A stretch of 64,000 nucleotides of DNA from Gemmatimonas sp. (lineage in GTDB: Bacteria; Gemmatimonadota; Gemmatimonadetes; Gemmatimonadales; Gemmatimonadaceae), in the NCBI GenBank assembly GCA_965279375.1, contig OZ257156.1:4320001-4384000 (forward strand), given 5' to 3'. Shown here piece after piece: positions 6,925 through 30,561 of this stretch. The notes under the pieces were generated by a model that saw only the letters and a program-made list of their open reading frames with translations, was not told the DNA's origin and made no database searches. Numbering within the stretch: position 1 is the first letter of the stretch; every line of letters starts with the position of its first letter. The position numbers and the translations under genes are program-made.

Positions 6925-8397
6925 ATGGCCGGAATCCGCATCGAAGGAGACGCCTCGGGCAACGTCGCCGAGGTGACCTCTGCCAAGCAGCTCAAGATCG
7001 TCCCTGAGACCAACCCGTCTGGCAATCCCGGCAACGTCGGCGCGATGACGATGCACTCGCTCAACGACAACGGGCAGGTCAGCGGAACGCCGCGCGTCTC
7101 CTCGCCGGAAACGTCGAGCGACTATCGGCTGCGCGTCGGCATGGACCTCATGCTCGACACTGAGGTGTTCAACTACGCGGCGCAGAACACCAGCAAACAC
7201 AGCTACACTGCCGTCACAATGGCGAATGCGCTGTCTGGTGGCTTCCTGAACATCAACTCCGCAGGCATCACGACGCTCAACACGGCGACGCGGTTCTTCA
7301 CGCAGCGCATGTTCGTGCTGCCCGGCCAGCAGACCTCGCTCTACGCCGAGACGCTCGCGGCGCTGTCGGCGGCGCCGGCCACGAACACGACGATCGACTT
7401 CGGCCTGTTCATCTGCGGCGCTGGCGCACCGATGGCGCCGACCGATGGCGCATACTTCCGCATCACCAACGCGGGCGTCTACGGCGTCGTGAACTACAAC
7501 GGCACCGAAACTGGCTCGGCCATCTTCAGCTTCACGCCGGTCGTCAACCGCGTGTATCAGTTCCTAGTTACGGTCACGAACCGCAATGTCGAGTTCTGGA
7601 TCGACGATGTGCTGTACGGCGAAATCTCCACGCCGGTCGGGCAGTCGCAGCCCTTCCAGTCGCAGTCGCTCCCGTACGCGATCCGGCATTCGATTGGCGG
7701 CACGGCTGCCGGATCAGCGCTCTCGCTCAAGGTGGCCGCGTACTCCGTGGCGCTCGGCGACTCGTCGGCGTCCAAGGACTTCGAGACGGCACTCTGCAAG
7801 TCGGGCCAAGGCGCCGCACAGGGGCAGTCGGGCGGTACGATGGGCACGACGGCCAACTACGTGAATTCGGCGGACCCCGCGGCCGCGGCGGCGCTCTCCA
7901 ATACCACCGCACTGGTGACGGGGCTTGGTGGGCAGTACCGCTTCAACGCGGGGGTGACTGCGGTGACAGACGGCATCGTCACCAGCTTTCAGGTACCAGC
8001 GGGAACGGTCGCGGTACCGGGCCGCTCGCTCATCGTCACTGGCATCAATCTGTCGGCCGTCAACATGGGAGCGGCCGTGGCGACCACGGCATCGACGATT
8101 GCCTGGTCACTGGCATTCGGTCACACGGCAGTGTCGCTGGCCACCGCGGAGACGGGCTCGTTCGTCTCGGGTACAGCCAAAGCGCCACGCCGCGTGCCGC
8201 TCGGTTTCATGACATGGCCCGTCGGTGCAGGTGTCGGCCAAGGGCCGCAGAACGGCGACATCTACATTCCGTTTACGTCGCCCATCGTCGTGAACCCGGG
8301 CGAGTTCATCGCGTCTGTCGCGAAGTTCATCATGGGCACGGCGACGGCCTCGCAAGTGATCTGGGGCCACGTGACCATCGTCGGCTACTTCGAATAG
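6925..8397 (+). CDS. Virion structural / fibre-associated protein with a ConA/LamG-like central region
   Basis: AGGAGA SD upstream; Thr/Ala/Gly-rich; YQFLVTVTNRNVEFWIDDVLYGEI is a ConA-like segment. Confidence 0.55.
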   Translation: MAGIRIEGDASGNVAEVTSAKQLKIVPETNPSGNPGNVGAMTMHSLNDNGQVSGTPRVSSPETSSDYRLRVGMDLMLDTEVFNYAAQNTSKHSYTAVTMANALSGGFLNINSAGITTLNTATRFFTQRMFVLPGQQTSLYAETLAALSAAPATNTTIDFGLFICGAGAPMAPTDGAYFRITNAGVYGVVNYNGTETGSAIFSFTPVVNRVYQFLVTVTNRNVEFWIDDVLYGEISTPVGQSQPFQSQSLPYAIRHSIGGTAAGSALSLKVAAYSVALGDSSASKDFETALCKSGQGAAQGQSGGTMGTTANYVNSADPAAAAALSNTTALVTGLGGQYRFNAGVTAVTDGIVTSFQVPAGTVAVPGRSLIVTGINLSAVNMGAAVATTASTIAWSLAFGHTAVSLATAETGSFVSGTAKAPRRVPLGFMTWPVGAGVGQGPQNGDIYIPFTSPIVVNPGEFIASVAKFIMGTATASQVIWGHVTIVGYFE

Positions 8398-8409
8398 GCG
8401 GATCGACCC

Positions 8410-9204
8410 ATGCCGATCACACACTATATCGACGACGAAGACAACGACGCGCTGAACCTGATCGTCTACGAGGCCGAGCCGGACCTCATGGGGCTGATCA
8501 CGTCGCGCGAGCAGCAGACGTGGCCGGGCAAGGCCGGCGTCGTCGTCAGTCCAGTTCGGACAACGGACCAGCGCACGTTTCGCTTCGTCTACGACACCCG
8601 CGTCACGACGCCGGCGGCGCGCCTGGCGTTGGTCGACCTCTTGGCGGACAAGTTCTGCACCGGGCTGAAAGAGATTCGCGAGGCGCATTCGCCCGATCGC
8701 GCGATGCGCGGACTTGCGCGGGTCTTTCAGGCCAACGTGCCGCTCGGTCCGCGCCAGGTGAACATCGCACCGCGCGTCGTCGTCGAATTCGCGTGTCCGA
8801 TCGCCTCCAAGTGGGATGTGCAGGCGCAGTCCCGGTGGCTCACGACGACGCCGGTCGACATCCCGTGCGGCACTGTCTCGCACGGAGGCCAACTCTGGCT
8901 CCCGGGGCCGCTCTCCGCCGAAGTGCGCATCAAGTATCGCAACGCGGCGGGCCAGCTCGTCGGCGAGTTGGTGTTGATGCCATCGATTGGCTCGAGCGAC
9001 ACGCTCATGGTCGATCTCTCGGCGAATCAGCTCTGGAAGGTCGACAGCGTCAACGTCTACACCGATGCCTACGCGATGAAGACCGGCGGGCAGTGGTTTG
9101 TGCTGTCGCATCGCTATGGCAATCGCGCCCTCGACGTGTGGGGTACGCTCGAGGTGACCGGCGCGACCGGCACCTACTTCTACCGTCGCAACTGGAGCAA
9201 CTAG
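8410..9204 (+). CDS. Distal tail protein (Dit)-like
   Basis: 264 aa; pattern WPGKAGVVV...RTFRFVY...VVVEFACP...YFYRRNW resembles siphophage Dit proteins. Confidence 0.5.
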   Translation: MPITHYIDDEDNDALNLIVYEAEPDLMGLITSREQQTWPGKAGVVVSPVRTTDQRTFRFVYDTRVTTPAARLALVDLLADKFCTGLKEIREAHSPDRAMRGLARVFQANVPLGPRQVNIAPRVVVEFACPIASKWDVQAQSRWLTTTPVDIPCGTVSHGGQLWLPGPLSAEVRIKYRNAAGQLVGELVLMPSIGSSDTLMVDLSANQLWKVDSVNVYTDAYAMKTGGQWFVLSHRYGNRALDVWGTLEVTGATGTYFYRRNWSN

Positions 9205-9936
9205 GTGACGATCCCACTCGCGCCCCCAGATCTCGACCCGACCGAGCTCGCGCTCGTCAGTCGCTGCGTCTACCACTATCGGCCGTCCGATCTGACGGTC
9301 GACATGCTGAACGGCCAGAAAGGCACGTTCACGCGCAACGCGACGGCGACGTTCTTGGACTCCCTGGGCGTGACCTGCACGGCTGGCTACGGGCAGCCGC
9401 GGTTCGAGCCGCGCAGCTTTCTGGGCTCGACGCGCATGGGGCTCCTGTTGGGCACCAGCGATCGGCTCACCTTCGCGGCGGATCTGCGCCCACGCGCCTT
9501 GGCGTTCTGGTTCGCGTTCGAGCAGATCGGCGCGATCGGGGCGGCGGGCACGGGCCTGTTCTCGCTGTGCAACGATGCGGCGACCGGTGCGCGCCTCGTG
9601 CTCGATTCCAGCGGCGCGTTCTATCGCCTCACGCACCACAACGGTTCCAGCTCGATCACCGTCACGCTGGCCGCCGCGCCGGTCAACGGTGATGACGTCG
9701 TTCTATGGGGCTACCTGTACGGCGACGGCAGCGTGCAGCTCTTCCAGCAGATCGGGTCCGCCAATGCGACCAACACCGCGCGCAGCAGTGCGAACGCGCT
9801 GGGAAGCGCGTGGGCCACGGGCGCGCGCCTGCGCTTCAACGGCGTCGGGACTGGCGGCACCGGTAGCCTCTGGCTCGATCGCTTTCGTATGATGTTGGCC
9901 CTCCCGACCTACGCCGAGTTGAGTCGCACGCAATGA
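9205..9936 (+). CDS. Head-spike/fibre-like protein with a ConA-like domain
   Basis: TFTRNATATFLDSLG...QPRFEP...GLLLG motif is common in phage fibre proteins. Confidence 0.55.
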   Translation: MTIPLAPPDLDPTELALVSRCVYHYRPSDLTVDMLNGQKGTFTRNATATFLDSLGVTCTAGYGQPRFEPRSFLGSTRMGLLLGTSDRLTFAADLRPRALAFWFAFEQIGAIGAAGTGLFSLCNDAATGARLVLDSSGAFYRLTHHNGSSSITVTLAAAPVNGDDVVLWGYLYGDGSVQLFQQIGSANATNTARSSANALGSAWATGARLRFNGVGTGGTGSLWLDRFRMMLALPTYAELSRTQ

Positions 9937-10598
9937 GCTCGATCGCTTCCCTCCTGACGACCGCGCCACGCATCGCCACGTGGCAAGACGCTGAGACGGT
10001 GCTCGCCATCATCGCCGCCTGTGCGGGCGGCCTCGCTACCACGGCGACCGCGGCGCGCTGGGCGTGGCTCCGCGCGATCAAGGTGCGCGAGGCCCGACGC
10101 GAGCGTGATGCGCGCTCGCAAGCGATCCTGACGCGCCTCGACACCCTCGCTGAAGGGGTGGGGCAGATCGCGCACGAGGTCCGGGACAACGGCGGCAGCT
10201 CGCTCAAGGATGTCGTTCGCGAAATCCGGTCGAGTTTGGCCCTCGAGGTCTCAGCGCGACGTGTCACCGAGACGCGCGCCATCTGGGAGCGTCGCGTCCA
10301 ACACGACGGCACCATCGTGCCGGTCTACGTGAGTCCCGAATGGACGCACCTTACCGGGCTTACGCGCGAAGACACCGAGAACGGAGGCTGGATGCGGGCG
10401 ATCGCGTCGGCCGATCGGGAGCGGATCGTGGCGAATGCGATGGAGGCGTGGGACGATGGGCGCATGTTTCAGGCGGAATACGACGTAGTCAATGTGCTGA
10501 CCGGCGTCCGCACTGCCGTGCGCCACCGCAGCACACCCGTGTTGGACGCCCGCGGCCGCATCGTCGGCTGGGTAGGACATCTCCAGCCGCTTTGGTAG
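9933..10598 (+). CDS. Membrane-anchored PAS/PAC-domain protein at the head of the lysis cassette
   Basis: N-terminal hydrophobic helix, coiled coil with NGGSSLKD, then PAS_3-like YVSPEWTHLTGLTREDTENGGWMRAIASADRERI...PVLDARGRIVGWVG. Confidence 0.8.
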   Translation: MSSIASLLTTAPRIATWQDAETVLAIIAACAGGLATTATAARWAWLRAIKVREARRERDARSQAILTRLDTLAEGVGQIAHEVRDNGGSSLKDVVREIRSSLALEVSARRVTETRAIWERRVQHDGTIVPVYVSPEWTHLTGLTREDTENGGWMRAIASADRERIVANAMEAWDDGRMFQAEYDVVNVLTGVRTAVRHRSTPVLDARGRIVGWVGHLQPLW

Positions 10599-10600
10599 TT

Positions 10601-10621
10601 CCTTGCGCTTTTGGCACGGTG
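10601..10621 (+). promoter_or_regulatory. Promoter/operator-like motif upstream of the holin (copy 1)
   Basis: CCTTGCGCTTTTGGCACGGTG, 19/21 identical to 19793-19813. Confidence 0.55.
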
Positions 10622-10676
10622 TTTCCTACGGTTCGCTCGTGTCACTCCACCCTGCAACCCAAACCGGGAGGTGATC

Positions 10677-10940
10677 GTGTCGAAGGCGCGCGCGTGGGCG
10701 TGGTTTCTGTTGGGTGTCCAGATCATCAACGCCGTGGCGTTCGCGCTCACGGCGATGTCGTCGTTTCAGCTGTCGCCGGGCATGAAGGAGCAGGTCATGA
10801 CGGCCAACATTGCCATCGCGTCCGTGGTCGGTGGTCTGCAGGCGTTCGCCAAGTCGTTGAGTGATCGCGATGGCGACGGCACACCCGATCTGTTCGACGA
10901 GGCGCCGGACGATCCCTCGCACGTGGAACCGGTGCTGTAA
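10677..10940 (+). CDS. Putative holin (two TM helices, acidic C-terminal tail)
   Basis: GGAGGTGA SD before GTG; two hydrophobic segments; immediately upstream of the endolysin. Confidence 0.6.
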   Translation: MSKARAWAWFLLGVQIINAVAFALTAMSSFQLSPGMKEQVMTANIAIASVVGGLQAFAKSLSDRDGDGTPDLFDEAPDDPSHVEPVL

Positions 10941-10941
10941 C

Positions 10942-11483
10942 GTGCCAACGTCGCCGACGTCGCTCGCTGAGGTCGCGGCACGTCCGCGCCGACTCCCGTC
11001 GTGGATTCAGCCGACGGATGATCCGCTCGCGGTCGCGATCGTGATGGCCGCGCGCGAGGCCGTGGGGGAATGCGAGGTCCCGGCCTCGTCGAATCGCGGG
11101 GCCATGATCGACGCCTGGAACACGGAGCGCGGCGCGCCGCTCGGCTCGTACTGTGCGCGAGCTTCGCGGCGTCGATGTGGGCGCAGCAGGGCGCACCAAC
11201 CGCCGGCGTCGGCCACGATCCCTCGTGTGATCGGCTGATGCAGTGGTGCGTGCAGACCTCGCGCTTCAGCAAAGCCCCGGCGCTCGGGGCCTTCGTGTTC
11301 TACGGCGTCCCGGGTGATGCGCAACACGTCGGCATCGTGCAGCGTGTCGCGCCCTACGTCATGAGCATCGAAGGCAACGCTGCGTGGGGCGGCACGTTCT
11401 CGCGCAACGGGGAAGCGGTGATCGCGCGACGCGTCGATCTCGGACGCGTGCTGGGCTACGGGCACGTGCAGGCCCGCAGCTGA
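10942..11483 (+). pseudogene. CHAP-domain endolysin with a 1-bp frameshift at ~11153
   Basis: Frame 1 reads ...SNRGAMIDAWNTERGAPLGSY; frame 3 reads CASFAASMW...QHVGIV...SIEGN. Adding one G (TAC TG[G] TGC) restores the YWCASF motif. Confidence 0.8.
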
Positions 11484-11623
11484 TGCGTGACTTCGGCTAC
11501 TTCCCGATCGTGCGGCGTCCGCTGCACCTCGCGCGCTGGTCCGGCGTCGTGCTGGCGGGCCTGTTGGCCGTCATCGTCGGCGTCGAGCTGTGTACGTGGG
11601 CTGCCGCGGCGGTGTGGCGATGA
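11483..11623 (+). CDS. Small single-TM protein (lysis accessory?)
   Basis: TGATG coupling to the endolysin; hydrophobic VVLAGLLAVIVGVEL. Confidence 0.5.
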   Translation: MRDFGYFPIVRRPLHLARWSGVVLAGLLAVIVGVELCTWAAAAVWR

Positions 11624-11940
11624 ACCTCCGCGCGCTCGAGGCGCAGCTCTGCGTCATGGACGGCGATCGCCTACGCCACGTAGAAACCGTGGCCGAGGCT
11701 AACGGCGTGCTGTTTCTCTGCCCGCTCTGCATGGCCCATCACCCGGATGGTGTCGGCGTCCACATGGTGCACGTGCTCTTCGCGGAGCGTTGGGTGCCGG
11801 ACAACGCCGTCCCGGGCCCCGGTCGCTGGCAGGCCTCGGGCACGACGATCGATGACCTCTCGCTGATGCCGAGTGTGCATCTCACCAGCCCCGGCGGCTG
11901 CGGATGGCACGGCTGGGTCGTGCGTGGAGACGCCACATGA
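11620..11940 (+). CDS. DUF6527-like Cys/His metal-binding protein
   Basis: FLCPLC...H...W...LSLMPSV...CGWHGWVVRG pattern. Confidence 0.6.
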   Translation: MNLRALEAQLCVMDGDRLRHVETVAEANGVLFLCPLCMAHHPDGVGVHMVHVLFAERWVPDNAVPGPGRWQASGTTIDDLSLMPSVHLTSPGGCGWHGWVVRGDAT

Positions 11941-12521
11941 CCGCGCCGCGCTATTACCGGCGCCGCCCCTCGATGCTCGCGGATGTCGCGGGCGTGCTGC
12001 TCTTCCTGGCGATCATCATCGGCGCGACGCGGCAGTGGTTGCAGAACCACGATGCGCGGGTGCGCGCTGAGGTCTATCAGGCGGCCGAGCAGCACGCCGC
12101 CGCGACCATCACCCTGCGCCGCGCAGCGTGGCAGCGCACGTACGACTCCCTCGCGACGCTCTCGCGCGTGCGAGACACCGTACTGGTCACGCAGATCCGC
12201 ACCGTGCGCGAACTCGTCACGCGCGTCGACACCGTGCGTGACTCGAGCGCCGTCGCGCAGGCACTGCGCGCGTGCACCGCCCTCTCGGATGACTGCGACA
12301 CGTTCCGCGTCAGTGCGACGCGCGCGCTCGTTGCTGCGGACTCGCTCCGCCAACTCGACTCCGCGCGCGTGATGACACTCGCGGTTGGACGCGCCGCCGC
12401 GAGTGACTCAGTCGCGCGTGTGATCCGCCAACGCAATGCGCGGCCTGGCTGGCGCGTCGTGTTCTCCACGGCGGCAGTGTCCGCCCTTACCGCGTATGTC
12501 GCGGGAGTTGTCACTCGATGA
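11937..12521 (+). CDS. Spanin-like membrane protein
   Basis: N-terminal TM, long helical periplasmic part with two Cys, C-terminal hydrophobic segment; located in the lysis cassette. Confidence 0.45.
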   Translation: MTAPRYYRRRPSMLADVAGVLLFLAIIIGATRQWLQNHDARVRAEVYQAAEQHAAATITLRRAAWQRTYDSLATLSRVRDTVLVTQIRTVRELVTRVDTVRDSSAVAQALRACTALSDDCDTFRVSATRALVAADSLRQLDSARVMTLAVGRAAASDSVARVIRQRNARPGWRVVFSTAAVSALTAYVAGVVTR

Positions 12522-13045
12522 AACGTGCCCTCGGTGCTGCAGCAACACTTGCGATGGCCGCCGTCGTGATCGCCGCTGCGCCGAAGGCTGGCGTGTCGCT
12601 TTCGAACCGTGTCGCCGCGACGAAGGATGCGCGCGTGCTGACCGCAACGATGACGCCCAAGAGTGGATGGGTGGGCCCGTATCGCTGGCGTATCACCGTC
12701 AATGACAGTCTGCGCTGGACCGCGACGGCGCAGCGGGTGGTGGACACGACGACGCTGGGCTTTCCGGTGTGCGTGCGCTACCGCGCGACGGTGTTTCCCT
12801 TCACGCCGGCGCGGGATTCCCTGACGCGCGTGCTCACGCTGTGCCGCACTGGGATGCCGGATGAAGTGGCGCACCTCGACTCGTACCCGGTGCAAACGAT
12901 TCGCGCCAACAAGCCGCCGCGCATCGGCGACTCGACGTCCTACGTCTGCAAGCTGCTGAGGAACAAGTACAACGGCACCGTGCTGTACTTCGATCCGAAG
13001 TGCCGCGATCTCGCAGATGATTTCTACCACGAGCGGCGCCCATGA
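12518..13045 (+). CDS. Secreted hypothetical protein
   Basis: Signal-peptide-like N-terminus; ATGA overlaps on both sides. Confidence 0.55.
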   Translation: MKRALGAAATLAMAAVVIAAAPKAGVSLSNRVAATKDARVLTATMTPKSGWVGPYRWRITVNDSLRWTATAQRVVDTTTLGFPVCVRYRATVFPFTPARDSLTRVLTLCRTGMPDEVAHLDSYPVQTIRANKPPRIGDSTSYVCKLLRNKYNGTVLYFDPKCRDLADDFYHERRP

Positions 13046-13560
13046 CGATCGATTGGGCAGCCGTACACACCGTCGCGCTGAAGCGCGCCCGACGCGAGTC
13101 CGATGATCACGACGAGGCCGATGACGTCGCGTCGATGGTCATGGCGCGTATGTTCTTCTCGGGCACTGAGATCGACGACCCGCAGCGCGTGGCATACGTC
13201 GCCGCACGCAATGCGTTGCTCGATGTGCGCAAGCGTCTGCACACCCGACACGAGCGGCCGTGGCGTGATGGCGATGACGCGGTCGACGAGACGGCAGATC
13301 CGCTCGCCGCGCTGATCGCCGCGCAAGAGCACGCTACACGCCGCCGCGCCCTTCGCTTGGCGCTGCGTGCCCTCTCGCCAGCCGACCGGCAGGCCGTTCG
13401 TCTCTACCACCTCCGGGGCGTGCCGGTGCCCGAAGTGGCGCGCGCGCTTCGGACGACCGAGGGCGCCATGAAGATGCGGCTGATTCGCGCGCGGCACGCG
13501 ATGCGCGCGACGCTCTGCCCCCTGCTTACGAGTGTTTCCTCCTCTTCCTGCCCATCATGA
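13042..13560 (+). CDS. Phage-encoded ECF-type RNA polymerase sigma factor
   Basis: Region 2-like EADDVAS...VAARNALLDVRKR; region 4 LRALSPADRQAVRLYHLRGVPVPEVARALRTTEGAMKMRLIRAR. Confidence 0.85.
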   Translation: MTIDWAAVHTVALKRARRESDDHDEADDVASMVMARMFFSGTEIDDPQRVAYVAARNALLDVRKRLHTRHERPWRDGDDAVDETADPLAALIAAQEHATRRRALRLALRALSPADRQAVRLYHLRGVPVPEVARALRTTEGAMKMRLIRARHAMRATLCPLLTSVSSSSCPS

Positions 13561-14033
13561 CGACACCGACGCCGACCTCCAGTGAGATCCTCGCCGCGCA
13601 CATCGAGCAGCGCAATGCATGGATCTCGACGCAGTTCCAAACACCGGCTCAGGCCGAACCGTACCTCCTCGTGCTCGAGGCGCGCGCCGCTGCATTCGCC
13701 GCGCACGTCGCCTCGATGGACATCGCGCCTGAGATGACTGTCTGGGCGCTCGCGATGGCGCGCAAGTACGGCAGTTGGGTGCGGGCGCACTTCTTCATTG
13801 CCGACTGGATCACCGCGCTGCTGATCGTGCGATACGGCGAAGAGCCAGACGCCGAGAAGTCGACGGATCAGCGCGTCGATGACGATGGCGTGCGGATCTT
13901 CCAAGGCTGGCCGCGCGCCTTCAGCGATGCTGATCTCCAGCGCGCGCAGGAACTCCTGCAGGGCAAGAACTGGTCTGCGGACCTCACGCTGCTCGCGCGT
14001 GACGCGGGCCTCTCGACCACGGAGACCGCGTAA
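13557..14033 (+). CDS. Hypothetical protein
   Basis: ATGA-coupled to the sigma gene; coding-like codon usage. Confidence 0.6.
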   Translation: MTTPTPTSSEILAAHIEQRNAWISTQFQTPAQAEPYLLVLEARAAAFAAHVASMDIAPEMTVWALAMARKYGSWVRAHFFIADWITALLIVRYGEEPDAEKSTDQRVDDDGVRIFQGWPRAFSDADLQRAQELLQGKNWSADLTLLARDAGLSTTETA

Positions 14034-14471
14034 ATGTCGCAGCTCACCGACTTCGCCGAAAACAAGCTCGTCGACGCGCTCTTTCGCGCGCAGACCCTCG
14101 GCGCGCCCGCGACCCAGTACTGGGCGCTCTTCACTGCGGCGCCGGGCGAGACCGGCGGTGGCACTGAGACCACCTACGGGAGCTACGCGCGCGTCGCAGT
14201 CACAGCGTCACTGGCCAACTGGGCTGGTACGCAGAGCAGTGGCAGCACGACCGCGTCGAGCGGCACCGGCGGACAGACCAGCAACAACGCGGCGATCACG
14301 TTCCCATCGCCGACCAGTGGTCCGGCCACGCTGACACACTTCGCGATGATGGATGCGTCGACCGCCGGCAATATGTGGATGTATGCCACTCTCACGGCAT
14401 CGCGTACCGTCAACAACGGCGACGCCGCGCCATCCTTTGCTATCGCGGCACTCACCGCGACGGCGGCGTGA
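14034..14471 (+). CDS. Phage virion/fibre protein (Gp80-like family)
   Basis: MSQLTDFAENKLVDALFR...ALFTAAPGETGGGTE...YARVAV...NNAAITFP...DASTAGNM pattern. Confidence 0.75.
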   Translation: MSQLTDFAENKLVDALFRAQTLGAPATQYWALFTAAPGETGGGTETTYGSYARVAVTASLANWAGTQSSGSTTASSGTGGQTSNNAAITFPSPTSGPATLTHFAMMDASTAGNMWMYATLTASRTVNNGDAAPSFAIAALTATAA

Positions 14472-14959
14472 TGTCACCGCTGTTTGCTGTGTTCGACATT
14501 GCGTCCGGTGCGCTCATATCCGTGGGCAGCGTGGTCGCAGACCCGCTGCCAGCAGGGATGGCCGCGCTCGACATCTCTGCGGTGGACATGGCGGTCTCGG
14601 AGTGGGACGCGGCGACGCGCACCATGGTACCGCGTGGCCCGCTCGTGCTCACCGAAATGAGTCGCGGCGAATGGATGGCGCGGCTCGGCGATGCCCGCGA
14701 AGACATGCTCAACGAGCTCCGGATCGACCCCGCCGTGCCCATCCCGATTCGGGGCAAGATCGAACGGCTCTACAAGGTGATGGACCGCCGGACCGGCGTC
14801 GATGTGTCGTTCGCTGAGACCATCGCGGGCGTCAATGCGCTCGCCGCGCTAATGGTGTGGGCGAAATCGGCGATGGGGCGCACGGAAGGTCTGGACGTCG
14901 CTGACGTGCCCGCGTTCGTGGCGATGATGCTCGCGCCCAAGGTGGTACCCGTTGTCTAA
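14471..14959 (+). CDS. Hypothetical protein (fibre assembly chaperone-like)
   Basis: TGATG coupling; WDAATRTMV motif; sits between fibre-like genes. Confidence 0.5.
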   Translation: MSPLFAVFDIASGALISVGSVVADPLPAGMAALDISAVDMAVSEWDAATRTMVPRGPLVLTEMSRGEWMARLGDAREDMLNELRIDPAVPIPIRGKIERLYKVMDRRTGVDVSFAETIAGVNALAALMVWAKSAMGRTEGLDVADVPAFVAMMLAPKVVPVV

Positions 14960-15791
14960 CTGGCCGCTGCTGAACGCGAGCGCGACAGAAAGCGTCGGCC
15001 TTGTGCGCGCCAGCTCACGCGGCACCGACTTGGCCAGCGGCGCCGCGCACACGTGGTCCTCCTGGGTGCAGCTCACCGCCGCGACCTCGCGCTCAGCGGA
15101 AGGGTTCCTCGTCAATGTCGTGTCCTCGGCGGGCTGTGGCCGGATTCAGCTCCTCGAGATCGGTATCGGCGCGAGTGGCAGCGAGGTCACGCTGTTCGGG
15201 CCATTCGCGATCGATGGGAACGCCGGCATCGCCACCGAAGGGCAATCGCTGTTCGTACCGATCCGCGTCCCCGAAGGCGCACGCATCGCGGCGCGGGTGC
15301 GCAACTCGACCGGCAGCAACACGGGCCAGGCGAACACTCGCGTCTCGCTGACCTTGTTCCGTGGCGGTGGGCTGTTCCCGGTCGGGATGCAAGAGACGTT
15401 CGCCGTGGGGTTGTCGCTCACCACGGGCAGCGTGACCAGCACGACGCAGTTGGATTCCGGCGCGACGGCCAACACGGCGGGGGCTTGGGTGGAACTCACC
15501 GCGTCCACGCCGGTCGAGACCCGCGGCTTTTACATCTGTCAGTCGTTCAATGCGGGTGATGGCACGCGCGCCACGTACATCATCGACGTCGGCATCGGCG
15601 CGAGTGCGGCCGAAGTCGTCGTCGCGAGCTTTCCCGTCACGGGCGACTTCACACAGCAAGGCGGCCCCAAAATCCTCGGCCCGTTCCCGTTGCATCTGCC
15701 AGCCGGGACGCGCATCGCGGCGCGATCGCAGTCGAGCAGTAACGCGGCGTCGAGCCGGAATTGCGGCGTCTTTCTCGTTCTCATCGGGTAA
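14952..15791 (+). CDS. Virion-like protein with two internal repeated domains
   Basis: WVQLTAAT...IGIGASGSEV...PEGARIAAR is repeated as WVELTAST...VGIGASAAEV...PAGTRIAAR. Confidence 0.65.
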   Translation: MSNWPLLNASATESVGLVRASSRGTDLASGAAHTWSSWVQLTAATSRSAEGFLVNVVSSAGCGRIQLLEIGIGASGSEVTLFGPFAIDGNAGIATEGQSLFVPIRVPEGARIAARVRNSTGSNTGQANTRVSLTLFRGGGLFPVGMQETFAVGLSLTTGSVTSTTQLDSGATANTAGAWVELTASTPVETRGFYICQSFNAGDGTRATYIIDVGIGASAAEVVVASFPVTGDFTQQGGPKILGPFPLHLPAGTRIAARSQSSSNAASSRNCGVFLVLIG

Positions 15792-15795
15792 CCGG

Positions 15796-16146
15796 ATGCC
15801 AGTCTCTATCGCTGCCAGCGGCTCACAGACCGCGACGCTCAACACCGACCACACGCTAACGACCACCGCTGGCCCCACGGGCGGTGGCGTCTTTCAGTTG
15901 CGCGTGGATACCAACGCGCTCGTCAACGGCGAGACGGTGTTTCTCACGGTGCAGACCAAGACGCGCAGCACGGACGTGACGCGCCAAGTGTACCCGCGTG
16001 CCGTGTTCACGCACGTGCAGCAGGACCCGATCAAGGACAGCCCCGCGATCGCGGTACCGAACGGCTGTGAAATCGTCGCGATTTTGCGGCAGGAAGGCGG
16101 CACCGGTCGCGCCTTCCCGTGGGCGCTGTACCGACTCGACGCGTAA
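15796..16146 (+). CDS. Hypothetical virion-like protein
   Basis: ATG at 15796; beta-rich, ends LRQEGGTGRAFPWALY. Confidence 0.6.
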   Translation: MPVSIAASGSQTATLNTDHTLTTTAGPTGGGVFQLRVDTNALVNGETVFLTVQTKTRSTDVTRQVYPRAVFTHVQQDPIKDSPAIAVPNGCEIVAILRQEGGTGRAFPWALYRLDA

Positions 16147-16863
16147 GTGTTCGCGCAAGCGCTCCCCAACCTCAGTGGAGCGCTCCTTGGATCGCTCTCT
16201 CCAGCCGCACAGGGACTCTCTGGTGCGGTGACGTTCGGCGTGACCGCTGCTGGAGCGCTCACCGTGCCGAAGGACTTGGCAGGCAGCCTCGCGATGAGCG
16301 TGACCAGCAGCGGGATGATCGTTGTCCCAAAGGCGCTCGCCGGCGCAATCGCGATGAGCATGACGATGGCGGGCGACGTCGTGGTGCCCAAGGCGCTGAC
16401 TGGCGCGTTGGCGTTGGGCGTGGTGGTGAACGGCGGCATTGTGACGAGTAGCGCGCTCGCGGGAGCCATCCCGCTCAGCGTGTCCGCATCCGGCAGTCTC
16501 AACGTGCCGATAGCGTTGTCTGGTGCGATCGCGCTCAGCCTGGTGGCGAGTGGATCGATCTCGGTCCCCAAGAGTCTCGCAGGCGGCGTCGCGCTCGCCA
16601 TCACGGCGGCTGGGGTGTTGACCATCCCGAAGCTGCTCGGCGGAGCGGTGAGCATTTCGGTCTCGCTCGTCGGAGCGCTGCTCGATACGACGCTGTTCTC
16701 GCACTACGTCGACGGGACGCAGCAAATGATGGCGCGGTACTTCGGCAGCATCGTCGTGCTGTCGAGTCACGAGGGGGATGTCACCGCGGCGCCGTCGTTC
16801 ACCGGAGCAATCACAACGCTCGACCCAACCTCGAGCGTGACTCTTATCGCGGGTGAGCCCTGA
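16147..16863 (+). CDS. Repeat-containing fibre/stalk-like protein (about 8 x 20-aa repeats)
   Basis: Repeats resembling ALAGAIALSVTASGxLxVPK at a 60-bp period across ~16215-16680. Confidence 0.65.
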   Translation: MFAQALPNLSGALLGSLSPAAQGLSGAVTFGVTAAGALTVPKDLAGSLAMSVTSSGMIVVPKALAGAIAMSMTMAGDVVVPKALTGALALGVVVNGGIVTSSALAGAIPLSVSASGSLNVPIALSGAIALSLVASGSISVPKSLAGGVALAITAAGVLTIPKLLGGAVSISVSLVGALLDTTLFSHYVDGTQQMMARYFGSIVVLSSHEGDVTAAPSFTGAITTLDPTSSVTLIAGEP

Positions 16864-17237
16864 TGCCGAACAACATTGCGCCTGAGTTGCCCATCGACAA
16901 CAACGCGTTGATGTGGTGCGAGATCTTCGAGAAGGTACCGAACGGGACGACGGGCACGATCGAAAGCGTGCCGGTCACTGGACGGACCGACATCGTCGCG
17001 TACATCGCCGCGACGGAGCTACTCTCCGATCTCACGCCGATCAACGCGGCGCTGTCGATCCCGCTGCCGCAGATCGGTTCGACGAATCGGTATTCGTCGA
17101 CGATGCTTGGCTCCCTGCTCAAGACGCACTTGCTCGCGCTCGCCGAGCAAACCGTGTACGTACACTTCCGCATGGGCGCCGGGCCCTGGCACGAGGTGGC
17201 GCAGACCATCGTGAAGAACGTGCGAGCGGCTACGTAA
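16863..17237 (+). CDS. Hypothetical protein (paralog 1 of 3)
   Basis: TGATG coupling; aligns by eye with 17239-17613 and 19092-19636. Confidence 0.6.
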   Translation: MPNNIAPELPIDNNALMWCEIFEKVPNGTTGTIESVPVTGRTDIVAYIAATELLSDLTPINAALSIPLPQIGSTNRYSSTMLGSLLKTHLLALAEQTVYVHFRMGAGPWHEVAQTIVKNVRAAT

Positions 17238-19792: not shown

Positions 19793-19823
19793 CCTTGCGT
19801 TATTGGCACGGTGCGAGCATCTT
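19793..19823 (+). promoter_or_regulatory. Promoter-like motif (copy 2)
   Basis: CCTTGCGTTATTGGCACGGTG; also reads as TTGCGT-17 bp-CATCTT just before ATG 19833. Confidence 0.55.
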
Positions 19824-28245: not shown

Positions 28246-29586
28246 ATGACGACTGCGCGCACGACGAAGAAGCGGAAGGAGCTGTATCGCGCGGGTCGCC
28301 ATGGCGACACCGTGCGCGTGGTCGTCGATACCGTCGAGCAGCGCGCGATTGTCTACTACCGCGACGCCGATGGCGTCGAGCACAAGAAGAAGTACCCTCT
28401 GAGCAAAGAGGGGCGCGCCGAAGCGATCGCGTTCGCGGAAGGGTGGCACGCGGAGCGCGAGCGCATGGTGCGGGCGCGACGCGAGGCCGTCACCCAGACT
28501 GTCGTGACGGTGCGAGATCTCTGGACTGCCTTCAAGGCAAGCGAGTTCTCGAGTGATGTCGGCGAAGGCCTGCGCCAGGCGACACAGGTGTCGTACACGC
28601 ACCACTTCCGCCGCTTCGAACTGTTCGTTGGGAAGGATCGTGCGGCCGAATCCATCAAGGTCCATGAGCTGGCGACGATGCGGAAGGAGGAGCGGGCCGC
28701 AGGGCGCGCCCTCAACCAGACGCGCCAGACCATGAACGTGGTGCGCATTGTGTTTCGCTGGGGCATCGAGCACGAGATGCTGCAGCACTCCCCGCTGGCC
28801 GTGATGCGGTGGAAGACCCGCAAGGATGCGCCCGCCCCGTTGGCTCCTGACGAGTACTCGACCGAGGAGTTCGAAGCGCTGCTGCGGGTCGTGGATCGCG
28901 ACGACACGCGGCAGTGGCGCGCGTGGGTGTTCCTGATGCTGGCCGGCCACTACGGGCAGCGCGCGAACGCCGTGCTGCATCTGCGGTGGCGCGACATCGA
29001 TGTCGATGCCGGCGTGATCACGTGGCCAGGGCGCTACCAGAAGCAGGGCAAGGACCTCCCGCGGCCGTTGACCTGGGAGGCGTGGTCGGCGCTCCTCACC
29101 GCGCGGGCGCAACGTGAACGGGTGGTCACATTCAAGAAACTGGCACACCACACCAATACTTTGGCGTCCGCAGCCCGGTTAGATGAGGCCGACTGGGTCC
29201 TCTTCGCAGAGCGCGACAAGGCCAAACCGATGAGCTACCAGTCGATGCACTACCACCTCGTCCACGCGGAGAAGCGCGCCAAGGTCGAGCCCAAGCCGTA
29301 CCGGAAGGCGCACGGATTCCGCCGCATGGTGGTGGGCAACGTGATTGCCGCGACCGGTGACCGGATGCTCGGGCTCGAGGTCGTGGGCGACAAGGATCCC
29401 AAGGTCCTGACGTCCTACGATCGGCGGCTGGCGGCCCGGGTGGCGGCCGGCATGGCGGCGGTCGCGACGACCGGGGCCGATGGAGAGGCATTGTCGAAAG
29501 CGTCCCGGAATCTTCCCGACGTGCCGACAAACGAAACGGCGCCCACCGAAGCGGACGCCGTAAACCCAACAACGACAGAGGTTTAG
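28246..29586 (+). CDS. int: Tyrosine recombinase / phage integrase
   Basis: YGQRANAVLHLRWRDID (R), QK, AHGFRR (HxxR), GDKDPKVLTSY (Y). Confidence 0.9.
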   Translation: MTTARTTKKRKELYRAGRHGDTVRVVVDTVEQRAIVYYRDADGVEHKKKYPLSKEGRAEAIAFAEGWHAERERMVRARREAVTQTVVTVRDLWTAFKASEFSSDVGEGLRQATQVSYTHHFRRFELFVGKDRAAESIKVHELATMRKEERAAGRALNQTRQTMNVVRIVFRWGIEHEMLQHSPLAVMRWKTRKDAPAPLAPDEYSTEEFEALLRVVDRDDTRQWRAWVFLMLAGHYGQRANAVLHLRWRDIDVDAGVITWPGRYQKQGKDLPRPLTWEAWSALLTARAQRERVVTFKKLAHHTNTLASAARLDEADWVLFAERDKAKPMSYQSMHYHLVHAEKRAKVEPKPYRKAHGFRRMVVGNVIAATGDRMLGLEVVGDKDPKVLTSYDRRLAARVAAGMAAVATTGADGEALSKASRNLPDVPTNETAPTEADAVNPTTTEV

Positions 29587-29601
29587 CAATGCTACCCCGA
29601 G

Positions 29602-29673
29602 AGCCACAGATCGGGATTGAACCGATGACCGCCCGATTACGAATCGGGTGCTCTACCGCTGAGCTACTGTGGC
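29602..29673 (-). tRNA. tRNA-Thr(CGT); probable integration site
   Basis: Cloverleaf; anticodon arm CCCGA-TTCGTAA-TCGGG; no encoded CCA. Confidence 0.95.
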
Positions 29674-29706
29674 GACTGCAACAACACCTGCGAACCGTGT
29701 CGAGCA

Positions 29707-29788
29707 TGCCTTCGCGCGGACTCGAACCGCGACGCCTTTCGGCACTACCACCTCAAAGTAGCGTGTCTACCAATTTCACCACGAAGGC
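29707..29788 (-). tRNA. tRNA-Leu(GAG)
   Basis: Anticodon loop TTGAGGT; long variable arm. Confidence 0.95.
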
Positions 29789-29862
29789 AGTCTGCTCGAC
29801 GGCGGTACTCCAACTCCAGACCCAAACCGCAATCGAACCTTGCGGTGACATCTCGCAAACTA

Positions 29863-29937
29863 CGGGAGCGACGGGGCTCGAACCCGCGACCTCTCGAGTG
29901 ACAGTCGAGTGCTCTAACCAAACTGAGCTACGCCCCC
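29863..29937 (-). tRNA. tRNA-Asp(GTC)
   Basis: CTCGA-CTGTCAC-TCGAG. Confidence 0.95.
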
Positions 29938-30038
29938 AACACCGAACGAACCAGAGGAACCGTAGCGTGACCGCTCGTGCTCACGTGCTCGCTTGCTGCA
30001 CCAACCCTGCTGCTCCCCCGACTCCTACCGGGGAGCCA

Positions 30039-30110
30039 TAGCCCCAACGGGAGTCGAACCCGTCTCTCGACCTTGAAAGGGTCGCGTCCTAACCGATAGA
30101 CGATGGAGCC
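30039..30110 (-). tRNA. tRNA-Glu(TTC)
   Basis: CGACC-CTTTCAA-GGTCG. Confidence 0.95.
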
Positions 30111-30138
30111 GACTTTCCTACAGACCAGCACCTGCCAG

Positions 30139-30211
30139 TAGCGGTAACGGGATTCGAACCCGTGTTCCAGCCTTGAGAGGGCTGTGTCCTAGTCCCCTAG
30201 ACGATACCGCC
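30139..30211 (-). tRNA. tRNA-Glu(CTC)
   Basis: CAGCC-CTCTCAA-GGCTG. Confidence 0.95.
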
Positions 30212-30380
30212 AAGGTGATTCCGCCGGAGGCGGAATCGCCCTGGCGGTCTCGGGAGATGCGCATCGCTTCGCGAAGCACACCCCTTCCTGCTTCGAGTCG
30301 TGATCGCGTTGCGGTCACTCCTCTCTTCGAGCTCGGCCGACAACCCGAACCCGCTCGAACATCGACAACGTGTGCACCAA

Positions 30381-30453
30381 CAGGCCCGGAGGGAATCGAA
30401 CCCCCAACCGCCGGTTTTGGAGACCGGTGCTCTACCAATTGAGCTACGGACCT
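30381..30453 (-). tRNA. tRNA-Trp(CCA)
   Basis: CCGGT-CTCCAAA-ACCGG. Confidence 0.95.
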
Positions 30454-30486
30454 CCGAGGCGGAGGCCTGACGGCTGCCGCTCGCAG

Positions 30487-30561
30487 GGTGACCAACGGGA
30501 ATTGAACCCGCAACCCCCGGAACCACAATCCGGTGCTCTAACCAATTGAGCTATGGCCACC
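30487..30561 (-). tRNA. tRNA-His(GTG)
   Basis: CCGGA-TTGTGGT-TCCGG; G-1:C73 present. Confidence 0.95.

Follow-up and report, generated by a model that had tools for sequence, protein, structure and literature searches.

What might a membrane-anchored PAS protein, whose chain ends with its sensor domain, be doing directly ahead of the lysis genes of a prophage? The question is raised by a gene at 9933-10598 of the 64,000-nucleotide stretch analysed here (the window, G000:C1:4320001-4384000, on contig OZ257156.1), which belongs to the 5.3 Mb, single-contig genome of a Gemmatimonas sp. The presence of Omp85 genes in this genome indicates a host with an outer membrane. By gene calls, the PAS gene sits in a long co-oriented prophage. 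We conclude that its product is probably a one-helix lysis trigger of a temperate phage, resembling LysF1b and LysA2b, to which a PAS domain has been added at the cytoplasmic end. The conclusion draws on the fold, the predicted topology, the family, the repeated occurrence of the gene within lysis cassettes and a distant similarity of the front half found by profile comparison, and the trigger function would be borrowed by analogy from LysF1b and LysA2b. That a ligand- or redox-responsive PAS domain gates this trigger from the host cytoplasm is put forward tentatively.

The first-pass annotation had taken 9933 to 10940 as one protein. The PAS protein is real, but two genes had been lumped: its own gene ends at 10598, and the stop at 10940 belongs to the gene that follows. 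The annotated single transmembrane helix corresponds to the only hydrophobic segment of the protein, which starts at residue 23 (Kyte-Doolittle 1.83). The AlphaFold2 model (72-row alignment; mean predicted local distance difference test score, pLDDT, of 93) consists of an unbroken helix at residues 17-83, an NGGSS loop at 86-90, a helix at 91-112 that is continuous into the PAS domain, and the PAS strands and helices at 116-219. The NGGSSLKD motif of the annotation falls at the break between the helices, and the coiled coil named alongside may be the form that the long helix takes; charged residues make up 37-38% of positions 42-112. The complete PAS/PAC domain of the annotation is likewise borne out, both by the model and by a Pfam PAS_3 match (E 5.1e-9, 36.7 bits; cut-off 25.6), and the best PDB folds found by Foldseek are LOV/PAS domains (E ~5e-7). 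The top solved sequences for the family profile are sensory-box domains, with the lead-in helix included in the match. As the chain stops two residues past the last PAS strand, the protein has no kinase, GGDEF or other output domain, exactly as had been annotated. The PAS_3 sensory-box domains of histidine kinases (PDB 3mr0, 3eeh) and LOV domains share the PAS fold and the lead-in helix with the window protein, whereas the latter has neither a kinase, GGDEF or other output domain after its PAS fold nor the LOV cysteine motif, and its lead-in helix connects to a membrane anchor.

LOV domains carry a GRNCRFLQ-type motif with an adduct-forming cysteine. Identity as a LOV photoreceptor was considered and rejected, as this motif is missing and the corresponding segment reads GGWMR, with the tryptophan present in 70 of 72 family members; we take Trp153 to occupy the position of the LOV cysteine. 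H198, Y183 and W213, which presumably face or line the PAS cavity, are invariant within the close clade, and H198 is found in fewer than 50% of members across the family. The top Foldseek matches of the model in BFVD are PAS proteins of 195-205 residues from uncultured phages. Uncharacterised proteins of 170-245 residues from Cellulophaga phages phi19:1 and phi18:3 and Tenacibaculum phage pT24 also match the model, as do phage proteins labelled GAF, hinting at further designs of an anchor plus a sensor in cultured phages.

The protein belongs to a large, chiefly viral family. A phmmer search with it returned 113 representatives at E <=1e-10, and among the best 150 matches 95 proteins had at most 330 residues, 81 of these with an NGG-type motif. 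Nearly all of the 72 members that were aligned match PAS_3 (71), and 54 match phrog_9869, a family of unassigned function. In the Atlas, the clusters closest to the protein are 99-100% viral (one has 1142 members); an Atlas search with residues 15-112 gave a best value of only 0.76 and no lead. Of the 68 members whose helix is clear, 66 have more lysines and arginines after it than before it, and by the positive-inside rule the family is therefore predicted, from hydropathy and charge, to be N-out/C-in with a cytoplasmic PAS domain, in agreement with the annotated location. Within the alignment of the NGGSSLKD region G88 is invariant, N86 is present in 70/72 and D93 in 69/72 members. This NGG-S-D motif, the most conserved feature beyond the PAS domain, is common to PAS-less proteins of lysis cassettes, and it aligns gap-free with the N-x-H-x-x-N-[LM]-R-D motif of LysA2b/LysF1b-type proteins.

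The N-terminal module also occurs alone, as 35 of the 68 viral loci of the first scan have the PAS domain and 33 lack it. A scan of assembled genomes gave 32 loci, four of them PAS-fused (L107, L108, L109, L138) and one PAS-less (L120). The remaining 27 were dropped: among those listed, 13 are proteins of ~700 residues, presumably tail-specific proteases, that contain an NGGGSLRDVV-like stretch by coincidence, and L111 and L133 had no profile match. A search of 400 further genomes from the host phylum gave no match to the window protein at 1e-15, none of 37 pattern matches in a closest-subgroup scan of viral contigs was confirmed, and L051 had no match among GenBank phage records. Longer fusions of the module were sought among 8000 scored candidates; the two matches were both 236-residue PAS proteins, which is weak evidence that no kinase fusion exists.

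When a PAS-less member served as the query, five distinct cultured phages were found, and the four that were viewed place the relative as follows: mu1/6 gp52 comes after the endolysin and holin genes, Sonali gp22 ahead of endolysin and holin, P1312 gp40 ahead of an amidase, and Wheelbite gp68 itself carries the annotation of a holin, the surrounding 6 kb inspected being free of any endolysin gene. The first three support the statement of the first-pass annotation that transmembrane proteins with an NGGSS motif stand beside lysis genes in some phages. The front half of the PAS protein also leads to a studied class of lysis proteins. An alignment of nine LysA2b/LysF1b-type proteins (D29 gp30, that is LysA2b, and eight relatives, one from an F1-type cassette) scored 93.5% in hhalign when compared with 28 PAS-less proteins; with the PAS family as a whole the value was 82%, and with the N-terminal part of that family 90%, reversed controls giving 0.7-4.7%. 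The front half is probably, if not securely, a remote homologue of LysF1b and LysA2b.

LysF1b (Girr gp35 and NormanBulbieJr gp33 of mycobacteriophages) is a single-pass N-out/C-in protein with a DUF2746 match. Efficient lysis requires it, energy poisons can trigger it, and it activates a partner with two helices (PMC13056207). LysA2b of D29 acts as LysF1b does, from a site downstream of the tape measure gene (bioRxiv 10.64898/2026.08.27.747656). Proteins of this type accumulate late in the inner membrane and are themselves able to trigger lysis, and their deletion delays and impairs lysis and does not advance it (PMC13056207; bioRxiv 10.64898/2026.08.27.747656). The window protein has in common with them the single N-terminal helix of N-out/C-in orientation (predicted here) followed by basic residues, a long charged cytoplasmic helix (30-50% charged in that family, 37-38% here), the gap-free motif I-x-x-[EQ]-V...[SN]-L-[RK]-D, a neighbouring gene for a two-helix partner (here by topology only), and a gene that may lie inside the cassette or away from it. 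The differences are equally distinct: LysF1b and LysA2b have 88-150 residues and no globular domain, whereas the window protein has 221 with a PAS domain; a C-terminal E-R-x-E-R stretch stands where the window protein has its PAS fold; the motif reads NSH/NTH-x-x-N as opposed to NGG-x-S; and their hosts are actinobacterial, whereas the host here has an outer membrane. Since its size and globular domain set it apart, we do not file the PAS protein in the LysF1b/LysA2b (DUF2746) family, only as a protein working like a member.

The neighbourhood survey of homologues, proposed with the first-pass annotation, gave a divided picture. From at least 66 PAS-fused loci, a sample of the family, duplicates and syntenic groups were merged by eye into 39 contexts, with the window excluded. 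Neighbour genes came from our own gene caller, and cluster representatives or hand-picked neighbours were scanned, the longest being skipped. A cell-wall hydrolase lies within two genes of the PAS gene on the same strand in 13/39 contexts, in 11 by profile, some under the cut-off (L003, L015, L025, L070, L071, L072, L080, L105, L108, L109, L138), and in two by eye only (L075, L107). Within five genes the count rises to 16/39 (L011, L013 and L021 added), and another seven contexts have holin-like small membrane genes only (L005, L008, L026, the L030 group, L101, L102, L104). At a chance rate of 5-15%, which was assumed, the 13 hydrolase contexts correspond to p 3e-8 to 3e-3. Small membrane genes account for 19/70 adjacent genes as against 23/220 genes at least four positions away (p = 0.0014), and one adjoins the PAS gene in 18/39 contexts. 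No common type unites the neighbouring hydrolases, which comprise the unrelated CHAP, NlpC/P60, GH19, GH108, muramidase and lysozyme enzymes, and in the four PAS-fused loci from assembled genomes the PAS gene stands among holin-, hydrolase- or spanin-like genes (L107 by eye).

A 57-row tree places the window in one clade with L070-L072, L101 and L102 (support 100/100), and in all five contexts of this clade a holin-like gene comes next after the PAS gene, the order being tail genes, PAS gene, holin-like gene and CHAP gene in L070/L100, L071 and L072. These five contexts come from related phages and are not independent; the hydrolase variety elsewhere is. The endolysin label changes 13 times on the tree and is no more clustered than in shuffles, and the label for contexts without lysis genes is clustered, partly via near-copies.

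Several observations weigh against the interpretation as a LysF1b-like trigger with a sensor. In 16 of the 39 contexts no co-oriented lysis gene was found among the neighbours scanned; these contexts include sites between terminase and portal (L001; the L002 group), between reductase and Mom-like genes (the L020 group) and at head or neck positions (L016, L017, L074). The LysF1b match amounts to one gap-free motif of 27-42 columns, and on removal of the membrane helix hhalign falls to 49% with a score of 20.6, the best of 60 column shuffles reaching 14.3. Pfam DUF2746 (PF10874) was matched neither by the window protein nor by the PAS-less members scanned, and no GenBank phage record matched either PAS-fused query (the window protein and P0061). 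Among solved structures, the PAS sequences nearest to this one belong to generically named sensory-box domains, and no ligand signature was found. The holin-like protein next door, finally, has no homologue except itself, and this prophage may be lysis-defective, its cassette possibly being inactive because the endolysin gene is frameshifted.

The scattered positions of the PAS gene are nevertheless compatible with a role in lysis, because D29 LysA2b works far from the lysins. They could also be explained by a late membrane accessory outside lysis, such as a decoy PAS domain that pairs with host sensor kinases or a factor in superinfection exclusion, for which the end of the late operon would be a landing site. 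The 16 contexts without lysis genes, some of them among replication genes (reductase, polymerase), fit this explanation, as does the resemblance, by sequence matches, of the PAS domain and lead-in helix to those of bacterial multi-PAS kinases. It is unlikely, however, given that the most conserved residues outside the PAS domain are those common to the PAS-less proteins of lysis cassettes and that the PAS gene recurs beside at least six unrelated types of hydrolase. A membrane anchor or chaperone for virion assembly would account for the two lineages that have the PAS gene between terminase and portal, for several others in which head, neck or tail genes surround it, and for the translational coupling of the window PAS gene to a tail gene; genes of the DUF2746 type, moreover, often carry the annotation 'minor tail protein'. 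The relatives so annotated, however, have been shown to be lysis regulators (PMC13056207; bioRxiv 10.64898/2026.08.27.747656), and no head or tail gene is constant as a neighbour across the 39 contexts, so that an assembly function appears very improbable.

The control of the PAS gene bears on its polarity. Its start overlaps the stop of the upstream tail gene (ATGA), to which it is translationally coupled. The holin-like gene follows next, as annotated; it is not immediately adjoining, since a 78-bp gap intervenes that carries a prophage-specific element, CCTTGCG-N4-TGGCA. All eight copies of this element in the genome lie inside the ~80 kb taken as prophage, and there were none in 30 simulated regions. 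Two copies are in the window (the one in this gap and one at 19793-19808; none in 100 shuffles), further plus-strand copies are at G000:C1 ~4275358, 4278724, 4284460, 4305987 and 4309388, and a minus-strand copy is at ~4284615. The seven plus-strand copies precede gene starts by 15-175 bp, portal-like, scaffold-like and holin-like genes among them. The element contains an imperfect TGC-N7-GCA palindrome and, among 151 fetched loci, occurs only in the window's own. It is probably a phage late promoter or activator site, judging by these positions. A sigma-54 site was not adopted as its identity, as GG-N10-GC is present in only one of four copies checked by eye; the consensus TGGCAYG-N4-TTGCW has 0 occurrences in the genome, although the host has sigma-54. 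No sigma-70-like promoter was found in window 8000-14000, and no terminator-like site between the PAS gene and the holin-like gene. With the element as a promoter, expression of the PAS gene would go along with that of the tail genes, and the holin-endolysin genes could have an additional drive of their own.

Upstream control separate from that of the holin gene would also suit an antiholin that is made with the tail genes and holds the two-helix holin inactive until a signal arrives, by analogy with RI of phage T4, as the first-pass annotation had suggested. The small membrane gene beside the PAS gene in 18/39 contexts is consistent with such a pair, as is phiKZ gp143, which speeds or blocks its holin depending on the allele (PMC12894885). 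We nonetheless consider an antiholin unlikely. Its polarity is less probable than that of an activator or holin because LysF1b and LysA2b, the nearest studied relatives, promote lysis: their loss delays and impairs it. Furthermore, RI is periplasmic, its exported domain binding the holin (PMC11413866), whereas the PAS domain is predicted to be cytoplasmic.

The globular domain of T4 holin T has a GAF fold. The T4 T/RI system and, as proposed here, the PAS protein both combine a single-pass protein that times lysis with a globular regulatory domain coupling this timing to a signal; T, however, is N-in/C-out with a periplasmic domain, whereas the charge bias of the window protein predicts N-out/C-in, at odds with the single N-in/C-out helix of class III holins, and a cytoplasmic domain. 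No sequence similarity was seen between the PAS protein and the T4 holin T system, and two proteins named class III holins are weak Foldseek matches of the model (E 0.044, TM-score 0.29-0.32). Holin T with its antiholins RI and RIII forms class IIIa, with superinfection as a signal from outside (PMC11413866), and phiKZ holin gp142 with its cytoplasmic regulator gp143 forms class IIIb (PMC12894885). Like the PAS protein as proposed here, gp142 is single-pass with timing modulated from the cytoplasm, but it is N-in, has an N-terminal helical domain and takes its regulation from a separate protein. The term GAF is absent from PMC12894885, and no paper was found on a holin with a GAF domain and lysis inhibition.

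For the protein as a LysF1b-like trigger, the following sequence of events may be envisaged. The single-pass PAS protein would accumulate late in the inner membrane, trigger lysis and switch on a two-helix partner, as borrowed from the LysF1b and LysA2b papers; the partner may be the 87-residue protein next door. Its helices could associate via the coiled coil and at the NGGSS kink. The PAS domain, acting through the continuous helix as in histidine-kinase chains, would set the register or oligomeric state of the coiled coil and so the time of triggering. A change in PAS packing could then displace the coiled coil towards the membrane and thereby alter the point of triggering. With the PAS gene coupled to the tail genes and a separate upstream element serving the holin-endolysin genes, the phage could adjust the ratio of the two membrane proteins independently. 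If the protein does promote lysis, the chances are about even that its PAS domain responds to redox state or a small ligand in the cytoplasm, or that it does no more than dimerise or bind a protein.

The time of lysis sets burst size and latent period. In the systems described in the papers cited, timing is set by the accumulation of holin or, in T4, by an outside signal (PMC13056207; PMC11413866; PMC12894885). No dedicated sensor that feeds host physiology into lysis timing was found in print, nor any paper on PAS fused to a holin or lysis-cassette protein, in a search judged from titles and the starts of abstracts, most subscription papers lying outside it; this accords with the annotation, which did not recognise such a fusion as a characterised system. 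A PAS domain wired into a lysis trigger is a small, clonable candidate for a sensor linking physiology to timing, and the profile link, if upheld, carries the recently described LysF1b class beyond mycobacterial phages to those whose hosts have an outer membrane. Should the domain sense, it would make a one-component sensor with a membrane lesion as its output, the clade-specific cavity residues H198, Y183 and W213 would let different phages read different signals, and many phages might tune the time of host burst from a signal inside the cell. Should it only dimerise, this large phage family would still present a holin-regulator architecture that is new. The architecture is surprising and easily assayed, and the sensing step is wholly inferred.

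Table 1. Features of the PAS gene and its surroundings (window positions; residue numbers are those of the PAS protein)
Feature	Position	Strand	Basis or remark
Last tail-region gene, 243 residues	9205-9936	+	weak PHROG tail match, E 0.038
Single-pass NGGSS-PAS protein	9933-10598	+	221 residues; open reading frame list, PAS_3 profile, model, Foldseek
Transmembrane helix, residues 23-41	9999-10055	+	predicted N-out/C-in; Lys/Arg: 1 before, 6 in next 15 residues
Long cytoplasmic helix, residues 42-83	10056-10181	+	38% charged; putative coiled coil
NGGSSLKD kink motif, residues 86-93	10188-10211	+	alignment of 72 family members
PAS domain (PAS_3 type) with PAC strands, residues 116-219	10278-10589	+	profile, model, Foldseek
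Prophage-specific element CCTTGCG-N4-TGGCA	10601-10616	+	76 bp before holin-like gene
Two-helix holin-like protein, 87 residues, acidic tail	10677-10940	+	two hydrophobic segments; GGAGG site, GTG start
CHAP-type endolysin gene	10942-11483	+	frameshifted near 11152
Single-helix membrane protein, 46 residues	11483-11623	+	gene call, hydropathy
Small Cys/His protein	11620-11940	+	weak DUF6527 / phrog_15183 match
Spanin-like protein, 194 residues	11937-12521	+	hydrophobic segments at 13 and 174; topology only

The genes past the PAS gene (Table 1) retain their annotated roles in part. The two-helix protein had no Pfam or PHROG match of note, and as it also lacks homologues its holin label comes from position and topology only. 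The CHAP gene is supported as an endolysin by PHROG (E 2.8e-12) and by a Pfam CHAP match slightly below the cut-off (24.8 bits), but its frame is broken. The letters at the frameshift are identical, with no insertion or deletion, in contigs from three runs of one sample, possibly the source, and the lesion is therefore probably real. The annotated spanin-like gene has hydrophobic segments at both ends of its product, but it has no family match in the Pfam and PHROG scans, and no lipoprotein partner was found in the plus-strand frames of 11480-13100. The Cys/His protein recurs three to four genes past the PAS gene in three cassettes of the lysis type (here, L005:6155-6589 and L080:6458-6748).

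Other arrangements of the PAS gene recur elsewhere in the family. In one clade (L030, L031, L033, L034, L079, L081, L084, L089, L096, L098) a sigma-factor block is followed by the PAS gene and a holin-like protein of 69-83 residues, and most members then carry a cysteine-peptidase-like protein of 300 residues (by eye, no profile match), possibly an unrecognised endolysin. The lineages with the PAS gene between terminase and portal are L001 and, separately, L002, L007, L009, L010, L012 and L019. In L020, L023, L024, L029 and L073 the PAS gene is directly 3' of a ribonucleotide reductase gene; a Mom-like gene comes next in three of these, and two of the contigs have 173 kb.

Terminase-, portal-, capsid- and tape-measure-like genes, labelled by eye, lie upstream of the window. 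Directly past the lysis genes, 13042-13560 encodes an ECF-like protein with sigma-70 region 4, which is a candidate for the protein that recognises the repeated element. Further on, virion-type genes form a second block (14034-17237, with a Gp80-like gene at 14034), and since the genes at 14952-17237 resemble, by eye, those just upstream of the PAS gene in L070-L072, the arrangement suggests that the lysis block of this prophage has moved. An integrase-like gene (28246-29586) abuts a cluster of seven tRNA genes from 29601, and this junction (28246-30560) is probably the right end of the prophage.

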